17,376 nucleotides of DNA, taken from IMG/VR virus record IMGVR_UViG_3300048907_000177, positions 1 to 17,376 of that record; one strand, 5' to 3'. The notes under the pieces are model-generated. The model was not told the origin of the DNA. It saw nothing but the letters and a program-made list of their open reading frames with translations, and ran no database searches. A program made the translations under genes and the position numbers. Positions 1,672-17,075 of this stretch are shown here, piece after piece. Source of the stretch: a virus. Positions within the stretch are counted from its first letter, which is position 1, and the number at the start of each line of letters is the position of its first letter.

Positions 1672-4600
1672 ATGCCGGTCATGGGGTGGATTGCCGCGGG
1701 TCTGCAAGTCGCGCGTGACGTGCTGGGCCTGCCGCGCCCGTTCCATCTCGACCTGGAGCCGCTCCAGACTTTCGACCTTGCCCCGCAGCCGGTGGATCGT
1801 CTGCTGGCCGCGATGCGGTCCGGCGCCGGCCCGGCGTCGCGCACTGACGCGCTGTCCATCGCCGCGGTGCAGCGCGGCCGAAACGAGCTGTGCGCGCTGG
1901 CCACGCTGCCGCTGCGCCTGTTCCAGGGGCTGACGCCGGTCGACTCGCCGCTGTTCCGCCAGTTCGATCTTGACGTGCCGAACGTCGTGCACATGTCGAT
2001 GACGATCGAGGATCTCGCCTTCGAGGCGATCGCGTGGTGGCAGGTCGTCGGGCAGGACTTCGACCGCTACCCGATGGCAGTTCGGCGCATCGAGCCCTGC
2101 CGTGTGCAGTTGACCCGGCCGGACGGCCCGCCGCGGCCGGATGACCGGCGCTACGTGTGGATCCGCCGGGAGACACCCGCAGTCGGATGGGACATGGTGC
2201 CCGCGTCGGAGATGATCCGGTTCGACTCGCCGAACCCCGGCCTGCTCAAGTCGTGCGGCCGGATGATCCGGATCGCGCTGGCGTTGGACCGGCTGATCGA
2301 GATGTACGGAAACAACCCGGCGCTGCGTGATCTGTTCACCGCGAACACGGACGCCCCGGTTGACATGCCGGAAGACTCCGAGGTGGCCGCGTTCCTGGCC
2401 GAATGGGCTGCGCTGCGGTCGGTGACGCCGGCCGGCTACCTGCCCCCGCAGTTCAAAAAGGCGGACGTGTCCGTGCCGTCGCCGCGGGATCTCACCCTGG
2501 TGGAGTTGCGCTCTGAGGTCAACCTCGCGCTGGCCAATCACCTCGGGGTGGACCCGGAAGACCTGGGCGTGAACACGACGTCGCGGACGTACTTCAACGG
2601 CGTGGACCGTCGGCAGGAAAAGATCAACCGGACGTACGCGCCGTACATGAAAGCGATCACGGACCGGCTGATGATGGGCGACGTGACCCGCCGCGGGTAT
2701 CAGCCGCAGTTCGATCTGACCGGCTACCTCAAGTCGGACCCGAACACGCAGGCAAGCTACTGGGCTGCCCTGAAGGGACTCAACGTGGTCGATGAGCTGT
2801 GGATCGGCGAGCAGGCCGGCATCGATCCGGCGGTGACCCGGCGGGCGATGCGTGCCGCCCCGGCACCGGCGCCGGCCGCGGACGCCGCGGTGAACGGGCG
2901 CCGGCCGGCAATCCAGCTCGGCGACATCACGCCGGCCCGTACCTTCGCCGACTGCCGGCCGGCGTACACGTTCCAGGCGTCTGAGTTCGCCGGGTCAACA
3001 CCGGCGCCGACCGTGGACCGCGCGGCCCGAACCATCACCGGCTTGGCCGTCCCGTACGGCGCGGTGGCCAACAAGTACGGCCTGAAGATCACGTTCGAGC
3101 CCGGGTCCCTGGAGTACGGCGACGCCGCGCGCATGCCGCACCTGAAGGACCACATGACGCCGGTCGGTTTCCACCGTTCCGTGAAGGACTCGGCCAACGG
3201 CCCGATCGTCGAGCTCGCCGTGTTGGACGCGCCGGACGGAAGCCCTGCCAAGACCGAGCGTGACCAGCTGCTCTACGACGCTGAGCACGGCCTGTACTCA
3301 GGCCTGTCGATCGGCGTGGACTACTCGCTCGACCCTGCCGACGGTGACGTCGAGATCGACGACGACGGGGTCTATCACGTCCGGCGTGCCACGTGGCGCG
3401 AGACCAGCACGACGTACATGCCCGCATTCGATGACGCACGCGTGACCAGAGTGGCCGCGAGCCTGACAGGAGGAACCACTGTGGAACGCTGCCAGCACTG
3501 CGGGCACCCGCACATGCCGGGGATCGCGTGCCAGACCTTCATCGCGCAGCTGCGCACGCAGCCCGACCCGGCGCCGCAGCCCGACCCGGTACCGGCGCCG
3601 CAACCTGCCCCGGTGCCCGCCCCCGCACCGGGGCAGCCCGACGCCGCTCAGTTCGCCGCGTTCGCTCAGGCAATGGGCATGCAGGTGTCGCCGCTCGGCC
3701 TGATGGCGCCGGGCCCGGTGCCGGTCAGCCCGCACACCGGTGTCGCCGTCGTCAGCGAGCCGGTCCCGTACCGGTACGACCGGCACGGCAACCTGCGAGC
3801 CGGCGCGCATGATTTCTCGACGGACATCTTCATCGCGCACAACCCCAAGTACGACGGCCCGGAAGACCGGACCGCGGCGGCCAAGCGCATCGAGCACTGG
3901 CTGTCGTACGCGTTCGGCGGGGAGGATGGGCAGCAGCACCTCGGCAAGCTGGCCGTGCCGGGGTCGGCCGCTCAGCAGCAGTACGCCATCACGCCGGCCA
4001 ACGTCGTCAACCTGAACTACCCGCAGAACCATCCGGAGATGTACGTCGACCAGCTCGACTACCTCTATCCGATGTACCAGGAATTCAACAAGGGCACGCT
4101 GGACGTGCTGACCCCGTTCGTGCTACCGAAGTTCTCGGCGTCGTCGGGCCTGGTCGCGGATCACGTGTCCGGCGTGGAGCCGACCCCGGGCGCGTTCTCG
4201 GCGACCGCGCAGACGATCACACCGTCAGCGCTGTCCGGCAAGGTGGAGATGCTGCGTGAGGTCTTCGATCAGGTCGGTTCCCCGCAGGCGTCGGGACTGA
4301 TCTGGCGGCAGATGGTCCGCGGCTGGTACGAGGGCATCGAGGCCGCGATTCAAGCGTTCTTCGTCGCGAACGCGGCCAGCATCCCGGACATCGCGCTGGG
4401 CACGGCGGTCACGGACGCCGCGATGGACACGTCCCTGGCGACGTTCATCGCCGCTCTCCAGTACATCCGCGGCGGCGACCGCTACCGCAAGATCTTCACC
4501 CAGGTTGATCTGTACAACAAGCTGATCAACGCGAAGGACACCACGAACCGGCCGCTGTACCCGCCGCTCGGCGCGATGAACGCAGCCGGCGTGGCGGGCC

Positions 4601-4848
4601 CGGAGGCGAACTACATCAACGTCCGCGGGAAGCTGTTCGTCCCTGAGTGGGCGACCGCGGCGTCGGGCTCGGTGGCCGCGTCGTCCTGGATGATGGACCC
4701 GGACGTCGTCGGCGTGTGGCTGTCGGTCCCCAAGCGGATCGATCTGGAGTGGCGCGTGGCGTGGGTGGACATCGGAATCTGGGGTTACAAGGCCCTGGCC
4801 ATCACGGACTTCACGCGTACCCGTGAGCTGATCTACGACCCGGTCTAA
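1672..4848 (+). CDS. Portal / HK97-type prohead protease / major capsid protein in one continuous reading frame
   Basis: 1058 aa with no in-frame stop. Roughly aa 1-390 are portal-like (SIAAVQRGRNELCALATLPLRLF, EMIRFDSPNPGLL, LVELRSEVNLALANHLGVDPEDLGV, SRTYFNGVDRRQEKINRTYAPYMKAI). Roughly aa 450-598 are prohead-protease-like (ITGLAVPYGAV, PHLKDHMTPVG, GLYSGLSIGV, RETSTTYMPAFDDARV). A Pro/Ala linker follows. Roughly aa 650-1058 are HK97-fold capsid-like. Confidence 0.85.
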   Translation: MPVMGWIAAGLQVARDVLGLPRPFHLDLEPLQTFDLAPQPVDRLLAAMRSGAGPASRTDALSIAAVQRGRNELCALATLPLRLFQGLTPVDSPLFRQFDLDVPNVVHMSMTIEDLAFEAIAWWQVVGQDFDRYPMAVRRIEPCRVQLTRPDGPPRPDDRRYVWIRRETPAVGWDMVPASEMIRFDSPNPGLLKSCGRMIRIALALDRLIEMYGNNPALRDLFTANTDAPVDMPEDSEVAAFLAEWAALRSVTPAGYLPPQFKKADVSVPSPRDLTLVELRSEVNLALANHLGVDPEDLGVNTTSRTYFNGVDRRQEKINRTYAPYMKAITDRLMMGDVTRRGYQPQFDLTGYLKSDPNTQASYWAALKGLNVVDELWIGEQAGIDPAVTRRAMRAAPAPAPAADAAVNGRRPAIQLGDITPARTFADCRPAYTFQASEFAGSTPAPTVDRAARTITGLAVPYGAVANKYGLKITFEPGSLEYGDAARMPHLKDHMTPVGFHRSVKDSANGPIVELAVLDAPDGSPAKTERDQLLYDAEHGLYSGLSIGVDYSLDPADGDVEIDDDGVYHVRRATWRETSTTYMPAFDDARVTRVAASLTGGTTVERCQHCGHPHMPGIACQTFIAQLRTQPDPAPQPDPVPAPQPAPVPAPAPGQPDAAQFAAFAQAMGMQVSPLGLMAPGPVPVSPHTGVAVVSEPVPYRYDRHGNLRAGAHDFSTDIFIAHNPKYDGPEDRTAAAKRIEHWLSYAFGGEDGQQHLGKLAVPGSAAQQQYAITPANVVNLNYPQNHPEMYVDQLDYLYPMYQEFNKGTLDVLTPFVLPKFSASSGLVADHVSGVEPTPGAFSATAQTITPSALSGKVEMLREVFDQVGSPQASGLIWRQMVRGWYEGIEAAIQAFFVANAASIPDIALGTAVTDAAMDTSLATFIAALQYIRGGDRYRKIFTQVDLYNKLINAKDTTNRPLYPPLGAMNAAGVAGPEANYINVRGKLFVPEWATAASGSVAASSWMMDPDVVGVWLSVPKRIDLEWRVAWVDIGIWGYKALAITDFTRTRELIYDPV
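3481..4848 (+). CDS. Possible nested, in-frame internal-start product (linker plus major capsid protein, 455 aa)
   Basis: A perfect AGGAGG at 3468-3473 is followed by a 7-nt spacer and an in-frame GTG at 3481. This sits exactly between the protease-like and capsid-like segments. Confidence 0.5.
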   Translation: MERCQHCGHPHMPGIACQTFIAQLRTQPDPAPQPDPVPAPQPAPVPAPAPGQPDAAQFAAFAQAMGMQVSPLGLMAPGPVPVSPHTGVAVVSEPVPYRYDRHGNLRAGAHDFSTDIFIAHNPKYDGPEDRTAAAKRIEHWLSYAFGGEDGQQHLGKLAVPGSAAQQQYAITPANVVNLNYPQNHPEMYVDQLDYLYPMYQEFNKGTLDVLTPFVLPKFSASSGLVADHVSGVEPTPGAFSATAQTITPSALSGKVEMLREVFDQVGSPQASGLIWRQMVRGWYEGIEAAIQAFFVANAASIPDIALGTAVTDAAMDTSLATFIAALQYIRGGDRYRKIFTQVDLYNKLINAKDTTNRPLYPPLGAMNAAGVAGPEANYINVRGKLFVPEWATAASGSVAASSWMMDPDVVGVWLSVPKRIDLEWRVAWVDIGIWGYKALAITDFTRTRELIYDPV

Positions 4849-4898: not shown

Positions 4899-4916
4899 AT
4901 GTTTCACGTGAAACAT
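4899..4916. repeat. Perfect 18-bp AT-rich palindrome ATGTTTCACGTGAAACAT in the capsid-downstream intergenic gap
   Basis: Read directly: ATGTTTCAC followed by GTGAAACAT. It lies in the 93-bp gap between 4848 and 4942. Confidence 0.9.
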
Positions 4917-11690: not shown

Positions 11691-12387
11691 TTGGGTGCTG
11701 GTGCCGGCGCTGGTGTCGCTGCGCAATGAGTTCAACGTCCTGGCGCCGGGCCGGGATAGGGCGTCGGACGGCTCGATCGGCGACGCGGCGCATCGGGCTG
11801 AGGGCCCGTCCGGGCACAACCCGGACGACACTCCGGGGTCGACGCCGGAGAATTCGGACGCGGACGCGATTCCGGAGGTTCGGGCTATCGACGTCGATGC
11901 TGATCTCCGTCAGCCCGGTTGGTCGATGGAGCGGGCCGTGCAGATCATCGTCGACCGGCATCGGTCGGGCGTCGACACCCGTCTGGACTACGTGATCTAT
12001 AACCGGCGTATCTGGGCCCGCGCGTACGGCTGGGAGGAGCGCGAGTACGTCGGCGTCAACCCGCACGACAAGCACGCGCACTTCTCGTGCCGGGCCGGGT
12101 CGGGGACGGCCGGTAACCCGGAGGCGTTCACGGGCCCGTGGGGGCTCCTGGCAGATGAGGATGAGGGCATGGATGCGGCAGAGTTCATGGCGTCGGTGGC
12201 GCGCGCCGTCCGTAACAAGGCGGACGACCCGGCGTCGGCGGGTGACCGGGCCAACCGGACCAATTTTGCGGTCGGCGTGCGGTTCGCGCTGGGCTACAAC
12301 TGGAACGTCCAGGACGGCGACGACACGGTCCCGGATGAGAAGACGGTAATGGGCAAGCTGGACGAGATCCTCTCGCACGTCGAGTAA
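11683..12387 (+). CDS. Putative endolysin (zinc-peptidase-like peptidoglycan hydrolase)
   Basis: GTG at 11683 is preceded by GGGGGGAGAG. The 234-aa product has SDGSIGDAAHRAEGPSGHNPD ... RAIDVD ... NPHDKHAHFS, which resembles His/Asp metal-binding motifs of LAS/M15-type cell-wall peptidases. It is the last gene of the late operon. Confidence 0.5.
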   Translation: MSSWVLVPALVSLRNEFNVLAPGRDRASDGSIGDAAHRAEGPSGHNPDDTPGSTPENSDADAIPEVRAIDVDADLRQPGWSMERAVQIIVDRHRSGVDTRLDYVIYNRRIWARAYGWEEREYVGVNPHDKHAHFSCRAGSGTAGNPEAFTGPWGLLADEDEGMDAAEFMASVARAVRNKADDPASAGDRANRTNFAVGVRFALGYNWNVQDGDDTVPDEKTVMGKLDEILSHVE

Positions 12388-12416
12388 GCCTGCCCTAAGA
12401 AAAACTCGAGGTATGG

Positions 12417-12455
12417 GGGCCCGGCGCCGGGGAAGTGGCGCCGGGCCCTTTCTGT
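12417..12455. terminator. Bidirectional intrinsic terminator between convergent genes
   Basis: A perfect 12-bp stem (GGGCCCGGCGCC / GGCGCCGGGCCC) has an 8-nt loop and is followed by TTTCTGT. An A-run at 12398-12405 supplies a U-tract for the opposite strand. Confidence 0.8.
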
Positions 12456-12501
12456 GTCTCCGAGCGGCGCGGTCACTGCTCTCGTGCCGTCCGGGACCCG
12501 T

Positions 12502-13002
12502 CTAGCCGGCGCTGGTGTTGTGGAAGCCGACCGGGTCGCCGTTCTCGTTGAGGTGCTCGGGGGCGTAGACGTTGGTCTCGGCGACGCCGGTGTCCCGCGG
12601 GGGCACGTCGGATCCTGCGATCGCGGCCGGCGGCTGGTGGTTGAGGATGCTGGGCCGGGTCGCGCGGTCGGTGCCGTCGTCCAGGCAGTCGCGGTTATGG
12701 GCCTCGTACTGGAGCCGGTCAGCGTCGGTCATGTCCCTGCTGTAGAGCGTGTACAGCACGCGGATGGCGCCGTCGTCCAGGATCGGAATGTCGATGGCGA
12801 CGAACGCGTGACCGTCGTCGGTGTCGTTGAACAGCCTGATGTGCACGTCGTAGCGGTCGGCGATGTCGAGCATCTGCCGGCGGCTGAGGTTGTGGCGGCG
12901 GTAGACGGTCGTGGTGGGGGCGGGGAGCGCGCCGGCCTTGACCGCGTCGTTGAGGGACTGGGCGGCGGCGACGTTCAGGGCGGCTGTGTTGGGGTTCGTC
13001 AT
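12502..13002 (-). CDS. Hypothetical protein, the only minus-strand gene (candidate regulator)
   Basis: 166 aa with very high GC3 in this frame. The overlapping + strand ORF is Val/Gly/Asp-rich shadow. It is divergent from the early operon and has a terminator downstream. Confidence 0.8.
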   Translation of the reverse strand: MTNPNTAALNVAAAQSLNDAVKAGALPAPTTTVYRRHNLSRRQMLDIADRYDVHIRLFNDTDDGHAFVAIDIPILDDGAIRVLYTLYSRDMTDADRLQYEAHNRDCLDDGTDRATRPSILNHQPPAAIAGSDVPPRDTGVAETNVYAPEHLNENGDPVGFHNTSAG

Positions 13003-13009
13003 GCCAACG

Positions 13010-13039
13010 ACGATAGGGCACGACCGTGGCCACGGTCAA
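13010..13039 (-). promoter_or_regulatory. Leftward promoter, apparently leaderless
   Basis: On the minus strand TTGACC (13039-13034) is followed by 18 nt and then TATCGT (13015-13010). Seven nt further is the ATG at 13002. Confidence 0.6.
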
Positions 13040-13062
13040 CGGTTGACCGTTGATCGTTGACG
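13022..13062. repeat. Operator-like palindromes and heptad repeats
   Basis: A 16-bp palindrome GACCGTGGCCACGGTC spans 13022-13037. It overlaps a 15-bp palindrome GGTCAACGGTTGACC at 13034-13048. Tandem heptads GTTGACC GTTGATC GTTGACG span 13042-13062. Confidence 0.7.
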
Positions 13063-13072
13063 GGGGTATCGT
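13043..13072 (+). promoter_or_regulatory. Rightward early promoter, apparently leaderless
   Basis: TTGACC (13043-13048) is followed by 18 nt and then TATCGT (13067-13072). Eight nt further is the ATG at 13081. Confidence 0.6.
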
Positions 13073-13080
13073 CCCGAGCC

Positions 13081-13275
13081 ATGACGAAAACCAAGATTCG
13101 TACGGCCGCGGCGACCGCGGCCCGGCGCCGGCAGGCTCGCCTCCGCCGTATCGCGAATGCGGTGGCCCTGCTGCTGCGGCACGGCTACACGGTGGTCGAG
13201 CCGGCGCCTCCGGACCCTTGCGGCGATAACTGCCCGGACCCGTGGGCGCACGCTGAGGGTGGTCACGATGTCTGA
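13081..13275 (+). CDS. Small basic protein (Cro-like by position; possible DNA binder)
   Basis: 64 aa from the ATG at 13081: MTKTKIRTAAATAARRRQARLRRIANAVALLLRHGY. It is the first gene of the rightward operon and is ATG..TGA-coupled to the next gene. Confidence 0.6.
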   Translation: MTKTKIRTAAATAARRRQARLRRIANAVALLLRHGYTVVEPAPPDPCGDNCPDPWAHAEGGHDV

Positions 13276-13918
13276 CCAGCCGCCCCCGTGCGGGGACCAC
13301 GATGCCAATGAGCTGTCGTGCGCTGCGTGCGGCACGGTGCGCACCGTCTTCTACGCTGGCGTCGCTGTCGGCGTGGACGCGGGGGACCCGGTGCCCGTGG
13401 TGGCACCTCAGCTGCATCCGCAGATCTACGACGGGTCGATCGGTGATCTGATCAACCTGCCAACGGCGGCCGAGAAGTTGGCCGCGCGTGTGGCGGTCCT
13501 GTTGCAGGGTCACGCGGCCGGCCTGCACGTGCTACCGGCGATGGATTGCCCGTCGTGCTCGCCGGTGGAGACCCCGAACCGTGACCGGCTTCGGCGCCGC
13601 GCGGCCCTCGCGCTAGATCGCGTGTTCGAGGTGATGGGTGAGCGACAGGACGACGGCGATGGCGGAGAGCACGCGGTGGGGGTGGCCGAGGAGCGCTTCG
13701 TACAGTCAATGGGCGACTACGTTCTGTCGCGATTGCACCATAACAGTCATTATGGTGTAGCGGCCGAGCGCTGTCCTACCTGCGATTCGCCCGCGCCAAA
13801 CCTCCACCCGGCGATGCAGTCAGAGGGCGAGGTTCAGCCCTGCATCGACCGCTGGCACCTCACGCACAACATGGCCACGCATAAGCGGAATTATGGGGCC
13901 GACGATGCGCGCGGTTGA
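13268..13918 (+). CDS. Cys-rich hypothetical protein (possible zinc-binding)
   Basis: ATG at 13268 follows GAGGGTGG. The 216-aa product carries CGDH...CAAC, CPSC and CPTC motifs plus His-rich stretches. Confidence 0.7.
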   Translation: MSDQPPPCGDHDANELSCAACGTVRTVFYAGVAVGVDAGDPVPVVAPQLHPQIYDGSIGDLINLPTAAEKLAARVAVLLQGHAAGLHVLPAMDCPSCSPVETPNRDRLRRRAALALDRVFEVMGERQDDGDGGEHAVGVAEERFVQSMGDYVLSRLHHNSHYGVAAERCPTCDSPAPNLHPAMQSEGEVQPCIDRWHLTHNMATHKRNYGADDARG

Positions 13919-14084
13919 GCTGTTCGGCGGGGAGGGCGCTCCGTGGGCGTCGCCGCGCGGACTGTCGCTGTGCGTGCCGTGGCAGTACACGTACTTCCTT
14001 GGCCTGCAAGCGGCAGACCACATTAGACGGTCAATGGCGGAATCCGTTGGCCTGTATACGCCGGCTAAGGAGAATGCATCATGA
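13905..14084 (+). CDS. Small hypothetical protein
   Basis: 59 aa from the ATG at 13905, with an alternative ATG at 13893. Its stop overlaps the next start (ATGA at 14081-14084). GC3 is moderately high. Confidence 0.4.
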   Translation: MRAVELFGGEGAPWASPRGLSLCVPWQYTYFLGLQAADHIRRSMAESVGLYTPAKENAS

Positions 14085-14332
14085 CCGTGTTCATCGGCGT
14101 GCTGATCATCGCAGCCGTCATCGCGACGCCGATCGTCGCGGACGCGTGGGCCCGGCAGGCGCGGGCGCGCCGGGTCGTGCCGAACGTCAAGCCTCCGGAG
14201 GCGGTGAACGCGTTCATGGGCCGTGAGCCGGACACGTCGATGTGGGGCTACGCCATCTGGGTCAGGGACGGCGAGCTCTATTGGTGCCCGTACGTGCGGC
14301 CGGCGGCGCCTGTAGATGGAGATGGTGCGTGA
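14081..14332 (+). CDS. Small N-terminally membrane-anchored protein
   Basis: A strong RBS AAGGAGA lies upstream. The 83-aa product starts with MTVFIGVLIIAAVIATPIVA. Confidence 0.7.
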   Translation: MTVFIGVLIIAAVIATPIVADAWARQARARRVVPNVKPPEAVNAFMGREPDTSMWGYAIWVRDGELYWCPYVRPAAPVDGDGA

Positions 14333-14421
14333 TGCCGTGGTGGTTCTGGATGACCATGGGGTTTGCGCTCGGGTCGATCTGGGCCAGCGCGCTCATGTTC
14401 TGGCTCGCGGGTAGGCGGTGA
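14332..14421 (+). CDS. 29-aa Trp-rich single-pass membrane micropeptide (not in the ORF track)
   Basis: Hand translation gives MPWWFWMTMGFALGSIWASALMFWLAGRR. The ATG overlaps the upstream stop (TGATG). Its own stop overlaps the helicase GTG (GTGA). Confidence 0.5.
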   Translation: MPWWFWMTMGFALGSIWASALMFWLAGRR

Positions 14422-15839: not shown

Positions 15840-16057
15840 CCTGGGGAAATAGCACTTCTGCACCACGGAAACGGGCTTTACCCCTCGGACCCCACGCGTA
15901 ACTACCCCCCATGAGGGCACCATGTCAATACCCCAATCCTGTGGTGCCCTTATGGGGTGCACATGGGCGTCCACCTACGCGGACGCGCGCGCTCTTTACT
16001 CACTGTTACTTACTTCCTTACGCTCTGTAAAGTCTGGTGTTGACGAACCCGGCACCA
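15786..16057. repeat. Iteron-like (G/T)GCACCA cluster with an AT-richer TTACT patch; candidate replication origin
   Basis: GCACCA occurs at 15788, 15798 and 15808 with exact 10-bp phasing, and again at 15860, 15917 and 16052. Inverted copies are TGGTGCCC at 15942-15949 and GGGTGCAC at 15955-15962. TTACT repeats lie at 15996-16021. Confidence 0.55.
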
Positions 16058-16139
16058 GCGGGGGACGATCGCTGTGCGGGCCCGCTTGTTGGGGGCGGGC
16101 CCCACTACCCAACCGAACCCAACTGGAAGGGATCATCCA

Positions 16140-16754: not shown

Positions 16755-17075
16755 GTGGGGTTAGCGATGGAATGGGCCGGCGGCAGTACCCGGGCATGGC
16801 GCGCAGTCCGCGCGTTCGTGCTCTCACGGGACGGGTACCGCTGCCGGGCCCATGAGGATGGGTGGTGTGCGCGAGCGGGACGGCGCACACCACATCGCTG
16901 TCTAGGGGTGGCGCCGCTGGTCGGCGGGCACGCGCATCACACGCTCGGCCGGGCCCGGACCGGTGATGATCCGGCGTACATCGTGGCATCCTGCGAACCG
17001 TGCAACCTGCACATCGGCGAGCCCGAGACGCATCATGATCCGAGGAACAGGGCGGTGACCAGGTGGAGAGACTGA
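16755..17075 (+). CDS. HNH endonuclease (packaging-associated)
   Basis: Motifs are WRAVRAFVLSRDGYRC, GGHAHHTLGRARTGDD and ASCEPCNLHIG, which fit the HNH pattern. It lies immediately upstream of the packaging region and terminase. The start is ambiguous (GTG 16755 or ATG 16767). Confidence 0.85.
   Translation: MGLAMEWAGGSTRAWRAVRAFVLSRDGYRCRAHEDGWCARAGRRTPHRCLGVAPLVGGHAHHTLGRARTGDDPAYIVASCEPCNLHIGEPETHHDPRNRAVTRWRD

Follow-up and report, generated by a model that had tools for sequence, protein, structure and literature searches.

The stretch of DNA analysed here in its full length of 17,376 bp (hereafter the window; IMG/VR virus record IMGVR_UViG_3300048907_000177) is the complete-looking genome of a small siphovirus with 68% GC, an uncultivated phage from a soil metagenome. 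A gap of 78 bp (13003-13080) separates its single leftward gene, encoding a 166-aa protein, from a rightward gene encoding a 64-aa small basic protein (SBP). This gap very likely holds two functional back-to-back promoters for the housekeeping sigma factor, P_L and P_R, with -35 hexamers only 3 bp apart and transcripts that would both be leaderless. A conserved 26-bp dyad, a candidate operator, covers both -35 boxes, and we favour, with reasonable but far from complete confidence, the reading that the gap is the regulated early-promoter hub of a small, probably lytic actinobacterial siphovirus. The gap and its borders comprise the following elements:

12502-13002, minus strand: gene for the 166-aa protein, the only leftward gene of the window; motif L..AD...HN..C
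13010-13039, minus strand: P_L, with -35 TTGACC (13039-13034), an 18-nt spacer, -10 TATCGT (13015-13010), then 7 nt to the ATG at 13002
13022-13037, no strand: perfect 16-bp palindrome GACCGTGGCCACGGTC in the P_L spacer, single copy
13032-13057, no strand: 26-bp dyad ACGGTcaACGGTtgACCGTtgAtCGT, candidate operator; 12 distinct loci agree at 24 of its 26 positions
13042-13062, plus strand: tandem heptads GTTGACC, GTTGATC and GTTGACG in the P_R spacer, the first two being part of the conserved dyad
13043-13072, plus strand: P_R, with -35 TTGACC (13043-13048), an 18-nt spacer, -10 TATCGT (13067-13072), then 8 nt to the ATG at 13081
13081-13275, plus strand: gene for the 64-aa SBP, with an Arg-rich helix and a C-x3-C-x5-H-x4-H tail

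Each strand carries the same TTGACC-N18-TATCGT arrangement, followed 7-8 nt later by an ATG (13002 and 13081), just as an earlier note on this DNA had described. The sequence features of sigma-70/sigma-A promoters (a -35 near TTGACA, a TANNNT -10 and a spacing of 16-19 bp) are found on both strands. The pattern TTGAC-N19-TANNNT occurs twice in the window, both times in the gap, against 0.05 expected, and none of 200 shuffled sequences reached two occurrences; in a generic promoter scan of the whole window, P_L and P_R make up two of the four sigma-70-like matches. Both start codons are backed by homologues that begin at the same residue. The distance from the -10 to the ATG, 7 nt on the left and 8 nt on the right in the window and 6-8 nt in relatives, agrees with the 6-9 bp (mean 6.9) that separate the -10 from mapped starts in Corynebacterium, a genus in which leaderless genes make up 20-33% of the total and begin with AUG in about 80% of cases (PMC5784534). 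The geometry at both ATGs fits leaderless mRNAs, i.e., a 5' untranslated region of 0-5 nt with no room for a Shine-Dalgarno (SD) sequence, and we infer that P_R starts at 13078-13081 and P_L at A13002, giving leaderless mRNAs of the 64-aa and the 166-aa gene, respectively. A comparison of SD sequences across all genes was set aside, as it relied too much on uncertain start codons.

Relatives were obtained by primase-based searches, which gave 5 IMG/VR and 21 metagenome loci, many of them on contigs of 17.1-18.0 kb, and six further loci came from protein look-ups and a DNA pattern search. Parsing by script and regular expression found the divergent-promoter layout in 13 distinct sequences, namely the window and 12 relatives (L002, L003, L004, which equals L010, L007, L008, L009, L012, L013, L015, L021, L028, and L029), and the same layout was read by eye in L031 and L033. 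Its left half consists of ATG, N6-8, (T/C)AnnGT, N17-18, and TTGACN, its right half of TTGNNN, N17-18, (T/C)AnnnT, N7-8, and ATG, with 3 nt between the -35 boxes (5 nt in L012 and L015). In an unbiased MAFFT alignment (A4), positions A2, G5, and T6 of the left -10 and T1, A2, G5, and T6 of the right -10 are invariant, whereas the loci differ in their remaining -10 positions, in the spacers, and even in the flanking genes. Direct alignments give 80-92% identity for 13009-13091, which is the sole stretch within 12301-14417 with nucleotide similarity to most relatives; the primase gene stands at about 74%. L007 has a 30-nt leader with an SD sequence and a GTG start behind the same P_R, and the promoter is therefore conserved for its own sake, apart from the start codon. 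It is because the layout has been kept between phages whose primase DNA has diverged to this extent and whose flanking genes differ that two functional leaderless promoters appear very likely, and the back-to-back promoters with leaderless transcripts proposed in the earlier note gain support from the layout of these 13 sequences.

Other promoters of this kind are seen in the group. In L015, TTGACA-N17-TAAGAT-N7-ATG and a near copy stand before other small genes (94-150 and 2179-2235). In L001 (4997-5048; the same in L006), two divergent genes only 46 bp apart have interdigitated leaderless promoters, rightward TTGCAC (5009)-N18-CAACAT-N7-ATG (5046) and leftward TTGACA (5035)-N18-CAAGCT-N6-ATG (4999), so that each -35 overlaps the -10 of the opposite promoter; the first rightward gene there encodes an HTH_17 protein. 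Leaderless promoters may thus be a general habit of these phages.

The two -35 hexamers had also been described as the arms of a palindrome at 13034-13048. The arms are present (GGTCAA-CGG-TTGACC), but they form an inverted repeat with a 3-nt centre rather than a strict palindrome, and such a repeat arises automatically from abutting -35 boxes. When 12 distinct sequences are anchored on the -35 pair, the conserved block runs from 13032 to 13057, with 13032-13050, 13052-13053, and 13055-13057 invariant and everything outside variable. This block is a 26-bp dyad of four ACSGT boxes at an exact 7-bp spacing (-> -> <- <-), centred on 13044.5 and hence skewed toward P_R: in addition to both -35 hexamers, it covers 9 nt of the P_R spacer and 2 nt of the P_L spacer. 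The limits of conservation are symmetric about this centre. AC (13032-13033) is invariant at the left edge, GTnGAnCGT (13049-13057) is kept at its specified positions on the right, and the two variable positions of the right arm mirror left-arm positions that are fixed by the leftward -35. The earlier proposal of one regulator sitting at the centre and occluding both promoters therefore retains its symmetric element, since the seven centre positions outside the hexamers and seven of the nine positions that follow are invariant in the 12 sequences, but that element is larger than was thought and off-centre.

Within the dyad, a repeat finder reports a central perfect palindrome of 19 bp (ACGGTCAAC-G-GTTGACCGT, 13032-13050), and the symmetry reaches into the starts of both open reading frames (ORFs) as ATGACGAA(C/A)(C/A)CCAA, with arms at 12989-13003 and 13080-13094 that read ATGACGAACCCCAA and ATGACGAAAACCAA. 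Palindromes alone prove little, because arms of 8-9 nt are common by chance (palindromes with arms of at least 8 nt average 2.8 per window in a Markov simulation), and those of the gap stand out by their clustering and their conservation in relatives, not singly. ACSGT-N2-ACSGT occurs three times in the window against 0.10 expected, and each of 12 related loci has a single four-box pattern, invariably at the divergent promoters. L002 has an analogous 25-bp dyad of other sequence (ACGTCAAgCGT-TGC-ACGtTTGACGT), together with a divergent SBP. No further operator copies were found in the window, where the palindromes are single-copy. These comparisons incline us slightly toward some protein binding the 26-bp dyad.

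The elements on either side fare differently. The 16-bp palindrome in the leftward spacer is perfect, as had been claimed, and its right arm is common to the dyad; it is exact only in the window and L031, although their leftward proteins are only about 32% identical, its core GTGGCCAC recurs in L002 and L021, and it is absent from L003, L004, L008, L009, L029, and L033. It may be a lineage-specific second operator. All three GTTGAYS heptads are likewise present, but the third is not conserved and reads GTCCACG, GTCGGGC, or GTTCACG in relatives. With the palindrome confined to a subset and the third heptad unconserved, the idea that flanking elements bias transcription to one side is not borne out, and any such effect would be lineage-specific at best. 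A further palindrome, with 8-nt arms (GGCCGCGGCGACCGCGGCC), falls within the SBP gene at 13104-13122, positions +24 to +42 relative to the P_R start; it is similar to the one in the P_L spacer (CGACCGCGGCC versus CGACCGTGGCC) and encodes the conserved RTAAATAAR motif, and it may be either an Ala-codon by-product or a downstream operator. Two other ideas were dropped. GTTGACC is present 11 times in the window against 2.4 expected, mostly as GGTCAAC on the coding strand of plus-strand genes, and this excess was set down to codon usage rather than operators, the frame having been checked at 486 only (terL, GTC-AAC). A terminator role for the palindromes was rejected, given their position upstream of both predicted starts and the absence of a T-run.

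Both proteins encoded beside the gap had been named for binding assays, and comparative support as a regulator exists only for the 64-aa one. SBP belongs to a family of 27 small proteins that occurs only in this phage group, with the conserved core RTAAATxAR..RRR..AAxLLRxxGWxVxPP. Structure prediction with database homologues gives one long basic helix (predicted local distance difference test, pLDDT, about 95), and SBP is a new one-helix basic protein family. In 13 of the 13 loci with the four-box core, its gene is the first or second beside the promoters, on either side. Seven other loci (L001, L006, L012, L015, L026, L030, and L032) have an HTH_17-type first rightward gene and neither SBP nor the core. 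The primase of L001 is the closest to that of the window (80% identity), yet L001 lacks both, and overall relatedness therefore does not explain the pattern. The candidate regulator and the centre of the promoter pair seem to move as one module, a circumstantial argument for SBP as the binder. SBP is the best candidate for the cognate regulator on these comparative grounds; that it does bind the dyad is possible, though doubtful. The 166-aa protein groups with a small set of uncharacterised proteins of 108-156 aa, and members of this family hold the same lone-leftward position in related small phages. Its AlphaFold2 model has a core pLDDT above 90 and an alpha/beta fold, with no match at E <0.02 in PDB or BFVD and no DNA-binding fold among the matches, and a repressor role was dropped on that account. 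The leftward gene is moreover not conserved, its place being taken in relatives by SBP, a 63-aa, a 74-aa, or a 166-aa-family protein.

The genes at this position also change sides. SBP is encoded rightward in the window, L011, and L031, and leftward in 10 other loci; the gene for a 63-aa 'MTREQ...' protein comes first on the left in L003 and first on the right in L031. P_R plus SBP of the window aligns reversed to P_L plus SBP of L004 with 72% identity (compared spans: window 13081-13275, L004 642-839, L003 481-669, and L031 2591-2791), which suggests that promoter-plus-gene cassettes were inverted around the palindromic core. A tail of the form C-x3/4-C-xDPxxHAEGGHD(V/I/R) is shared by otherwise unrelated small early proteins, namely SBP, a member of the 166-aa family, and the product of the ORF before the primase gene in L007 (window 13213-13275, P0015, L004 3385-3444, and L007 1556-1606). 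This tail resembles a Cys2His2 metal-binding knuckle, and the codons for it, GCTGAGGGTGGTCACGATG, also provide the Shine-Dalgarno sequence and overlapping start of the next gene, and selection on the tail may act on protein, RNA, or a recombination junction.

The remainder of the genome is laid out as follows:

Gene order, 5' part: terminase; 1058-aa portal/capsid fusion; adaptor; major tail protein; tape-measure-like proteins; 705-aa tail protein
Gene order, middle: holin-like gene; 264-aa lysis-region gene; the single leftward 166-aa gene
Gene order, 3' part: rightward genes for 64-, 216-, and 83-aa proteins; D5-type primase/helicase; conserved non-coding stretch; small genes
12417-12459, no strand: hairpin with a GC-rich 12-bp stem, then a T-rich tail (z = -2.6)
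16040-16069, plus strand: promoter-like site TTGACG-N18-GACGAT, followed by a leader of about 70 nt and a 94-aa gene

The hairpin sits between the convergent lysis operon and the 166-aa gene and is likely to be the terminator of both the P_L transcript and the late rightward transcript; a simple terminator scan of the window did not call it. Directly after the primase gene, within 15840-16069, comes a segment of about 220 nt that is non-coding, lower in GC, and conserved at 71-78% in 9 distinct relatives. It contains TGCACC/GGTGCA inverted repeats, one pair of them covarying, then an invariant CTACGCGGACGCGCGC block, and after these the conserved promoter-like site, whose equivalent in L001 and L007 is TTGTCC-N18-TACCGT. 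This stretch, which has no match in Rfam, may serve as an origin, a middle promoter, or both; the whole window likewise gave nothing in Rfam and tRNA scans. Scans of the 166-, 64-, 216-, 83-, and 94-aa proteins against Pfam, PHROGs, and NCBIfam gave nothing, and an ORF rich in Cys and His (16755-17075), which on inspection by eye resembles an HNH protein, has no match in Pfam or NCBIfam. Against GenBank phages, the window has no nucleotide match, its terminase and primase reach protein identities of only 23-37%, and the promoter region, the 166-aa protein, and large parts of the window give either no match or chance matches at the nucleotide and protein levels. By its gene content, this is probably a lytic small-genome actinophage.

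In the structural part, the 1058-aa ORF (1672-4848) has PHROG matches that are portal-like over residues 129-367 and major-head-like over residues 436-597. Small-genome actinophages have protease-scaffold-capsid fusions, and a fusion that includes the portal too would be unusual; the single ORF may instead reflect a missed frameshift or stop. The 93-nt gap after this gene holds a perfect 18-bp AT-rich palindrome (ATGTTTCACGTGAAACAT, 4899-4916), unusual for a genome of 68% GC, whose 10-bp core TTCACGTGAA has only one site in the fetched loci (L011 5957-5966).

In the reading that we favour, the RNA polymerase of the host, with its principal sigma factor, would use both promoters, and transcription from each would begin at the ATG or at most 3 nt from it. 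P_R would launch the early operon, for SBP, the 216- and 83-aa proteins, and the D5-type primase/helicase, while P_L would express the 166-aa protein as a single accessory gene, ending at the 12417-12459 hairpin. The predicted starts are 79 bp apart; the upstream contacts of each polymerase should therefore overlap the other promoter, and some interference is expected. An early phage protein, most likely SBP made from P_R, would then bind the dyad at 13032-13057, where a dimer or tetramer on the four boxes would block both -35 hexamers, that of P_R more completely. Both promoters would be shut down after the early phase, as negative feedback or temporal control and not as a decision between lysis and lysogeny. 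A bolder proposal, which we put forward tentatively and regard as rather unlikely, is that SBP founds a new class of single-helix Arg-rich regulators that read four ACSGT boxes at 7-bp spacing, silence both promoters, and are interchangeable in function with the HTH_17 proteins of sister phages, the core being a reversible joint for cassette flipping. Such flipping would account for SBP and the 63-aa gene lying to the left in some genomes and to the right in others.

Several observations weigh against a regulated hub of this kind. The invariance of the core could partly result from recombination of co-infecting phages or from a host factor, and SBP and core might occur together because one mosaic module was inherited, not because they work as a pair. 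Searches with the SBP profile against PDB sequences and Pfam returned only noise, hence neither a DNA-binding family nor a solved structure, and to our knowledge a single helix alone is no recognised sequence-specific fold. The rightward -10 is 8 nt from its ATG, and the true start may leave a leader of 1-3 nt. The further promoter-like site at 16040-16069 means that P_R is not necessarily the master promoter.

The main rival, which we judge unlikely overall, is that both are constitutive early promoters with no dedicated regulator, the symmetry being a by-product of abutting -35 boxes and the additional conserved bases stemming from polymerase preference, a host nucleoid or regulatory protein, or recombination that homogenises a mosaic joint. 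The automatic origin of the -35 inverted repeat and the chance frequency of palindromes agree with this, as do the swapping of genes from side to side, which makes the region behave as a recombination joint, and the lack, beside the promoters of the window, of a gene for a known DNA-binding protein. What it accommodates poorly are the 14 invariant positions outside the hexamers and limits of conservation that lie symmetrically around a dyad whose centre is displaced from that of the -35 pair; spacer bases beside a -35 are normally unconstrained by polymerase. Nor does this rival account for the joint replacement of core and SBP by another centre and an HTH_17 gene. Origin iterons offer another explanation for the heptads and palindromes: these would serve the D5-type primase/helicase, and the promoters would be secondary or coincidental. 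Direct 7-bp repeats with a flanking inverted copy do lie 1.3 kb upstream of the primase gene, and origins often overlap promoters. However, only two of the three heptads are kept, the conserved positions follow promoter geometry relative to both start codons, the region is GC-rich without an AT-rich unwinding element, and L001 and L006 have no such repeats despite primases that are 80% identical; the non-coding, lower-GC segment at 15840-16040 with its TGCACC/GGTGCA repeats is a better candidate. An origin at the gap is thus highly improbable.

Hardly more probable is a bistable lysis/lysogeny switch like those of lambda or BPs, in which a leftward maintenance repressor and the 64-aa protein as a Cro-like antagonist would both act on the palindromes. 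The layout does recall an immunity region, with a lone leftward gene divergent from an early operon and palindromes in the promoters, and in mycobacteriophage BPs, the Prep and PR promoters diverge and the PR spacer contains an operator (PMC4557955). Dyad symmetry over divergent promoters, as in the operator of an immunity switch, is found here in the 26-bp dyad and the 16-bp palindrome, both putative binding sites. Yet family scans of the ORFs of this 17.4-kb genome revealed no integrase, no partition system, and no known repressor family or domain, the alpha/beta fold of the 166-aa protein has no DNA-binding match of the sort a repressor should show, and the leftward gene is not conserved among relatives. 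Among 185,579 reference genomes, there was no close relative and a single distant match, at 40% identity. Comparable small-genome actinophages are lytic (PMC7302621). The genetic switch that the earlier note had seen in this gap is accordingly very unlikely to be a bistable one, and the regulated early-promoter hub is the preferred reading.

Known systems resemble this hub in part. In lambda, PRM and PR are also back-to-back, with operators (OR1-OR3) that overlap -35 and spacer regions, and their starts are 82 bp apart, close to the 79 bp predicted here. The lambda cI transcript from PRM is leaderless (PMC10491246), whereas in the window both transcripts would be; the -35 boxes are only 3 bp apart, one dyad of four 5-bp boxes stands in place of three 17-bp operators, and neither a CI- or Cro-type helix-turn-helix protein nor a lysogeny apparatus accompanies them. 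The 33-34 region of BPs, an actinobacteriophage, likewise has two divergent promoters in one short intergenic region, with a palindromic operator in the -35/-10 spacer of the rightward early promoter PR (PMC4557955). Unlike the window, where the dyad is single-copy and no repressor or integrase was found, BPs is temperate, has an integrase and a helix-turn-helix repressor, and carries further operator copies elsewhere in its genome.

In overall plan, the window is closest to the small-genome lytic actinophages (Microbacterium cluster EE; Arthrobacter AN, AX, and FE; Gordonia CW and DM; Rhodococcus RRH1), which have genomes of about 17 kb with high GC, a capsid fusion gene, compact structural genes, a lysis cassette, few regulators, an HNH nuclease, and no integrase or repressor (PMC7302621). 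It differs from them in lacking nucleotide similarity and, as mentioned above, in its low protein identity to any GenBank phage. Its D5-type primase/helicase is not listed for cluster EE, nor is such a promoter pair described for these clusters, in the sections consulted (PMC7302621). Those sections do describe intergenic inverted repeats of Microbacterium cluster EG (GATCAACCNNGGTTGATC), which, like the dyad, are short, contain GTTGA, are conserved across diverged phages, and lie just upstream of early genes (PMC7302621). The EG repeats are present in 8-10 copies, 14-22 bp upstream of start codons in short gaps, in contrast to the one copy here that coincides with two -35 boxes; the sequences resemble each other only in part, perhaps by coincidence.

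No new category of biology is proposed here: phages with divergent promoters and overlapping operators are familiar, as are the leaderless mRNAs of actinobacteria. This case differs from lambda and BPs in having two transcripts that would both be leaderless, abutting -35 boxes, a single four-box dyad, and a novel one-helix protein as candidate regulator. If confirmed, this would be a near-minimal bidirectional control region, with 78 bp, no untranslated leaders, and one shared operator, serving an entire clade of small, uncultivated actinophages from soil with genomes of about 17 kb. It would also offer a compact, portable bidirectional promoter part for high-GC Actinobacteria and a natural test case for two polymerases competing at abutting -35 boxes, and the operator/regulator pairs (dyad plus SBP versus the other centre plus HTH_17) would allow the study of module swaps in mosaic phages.

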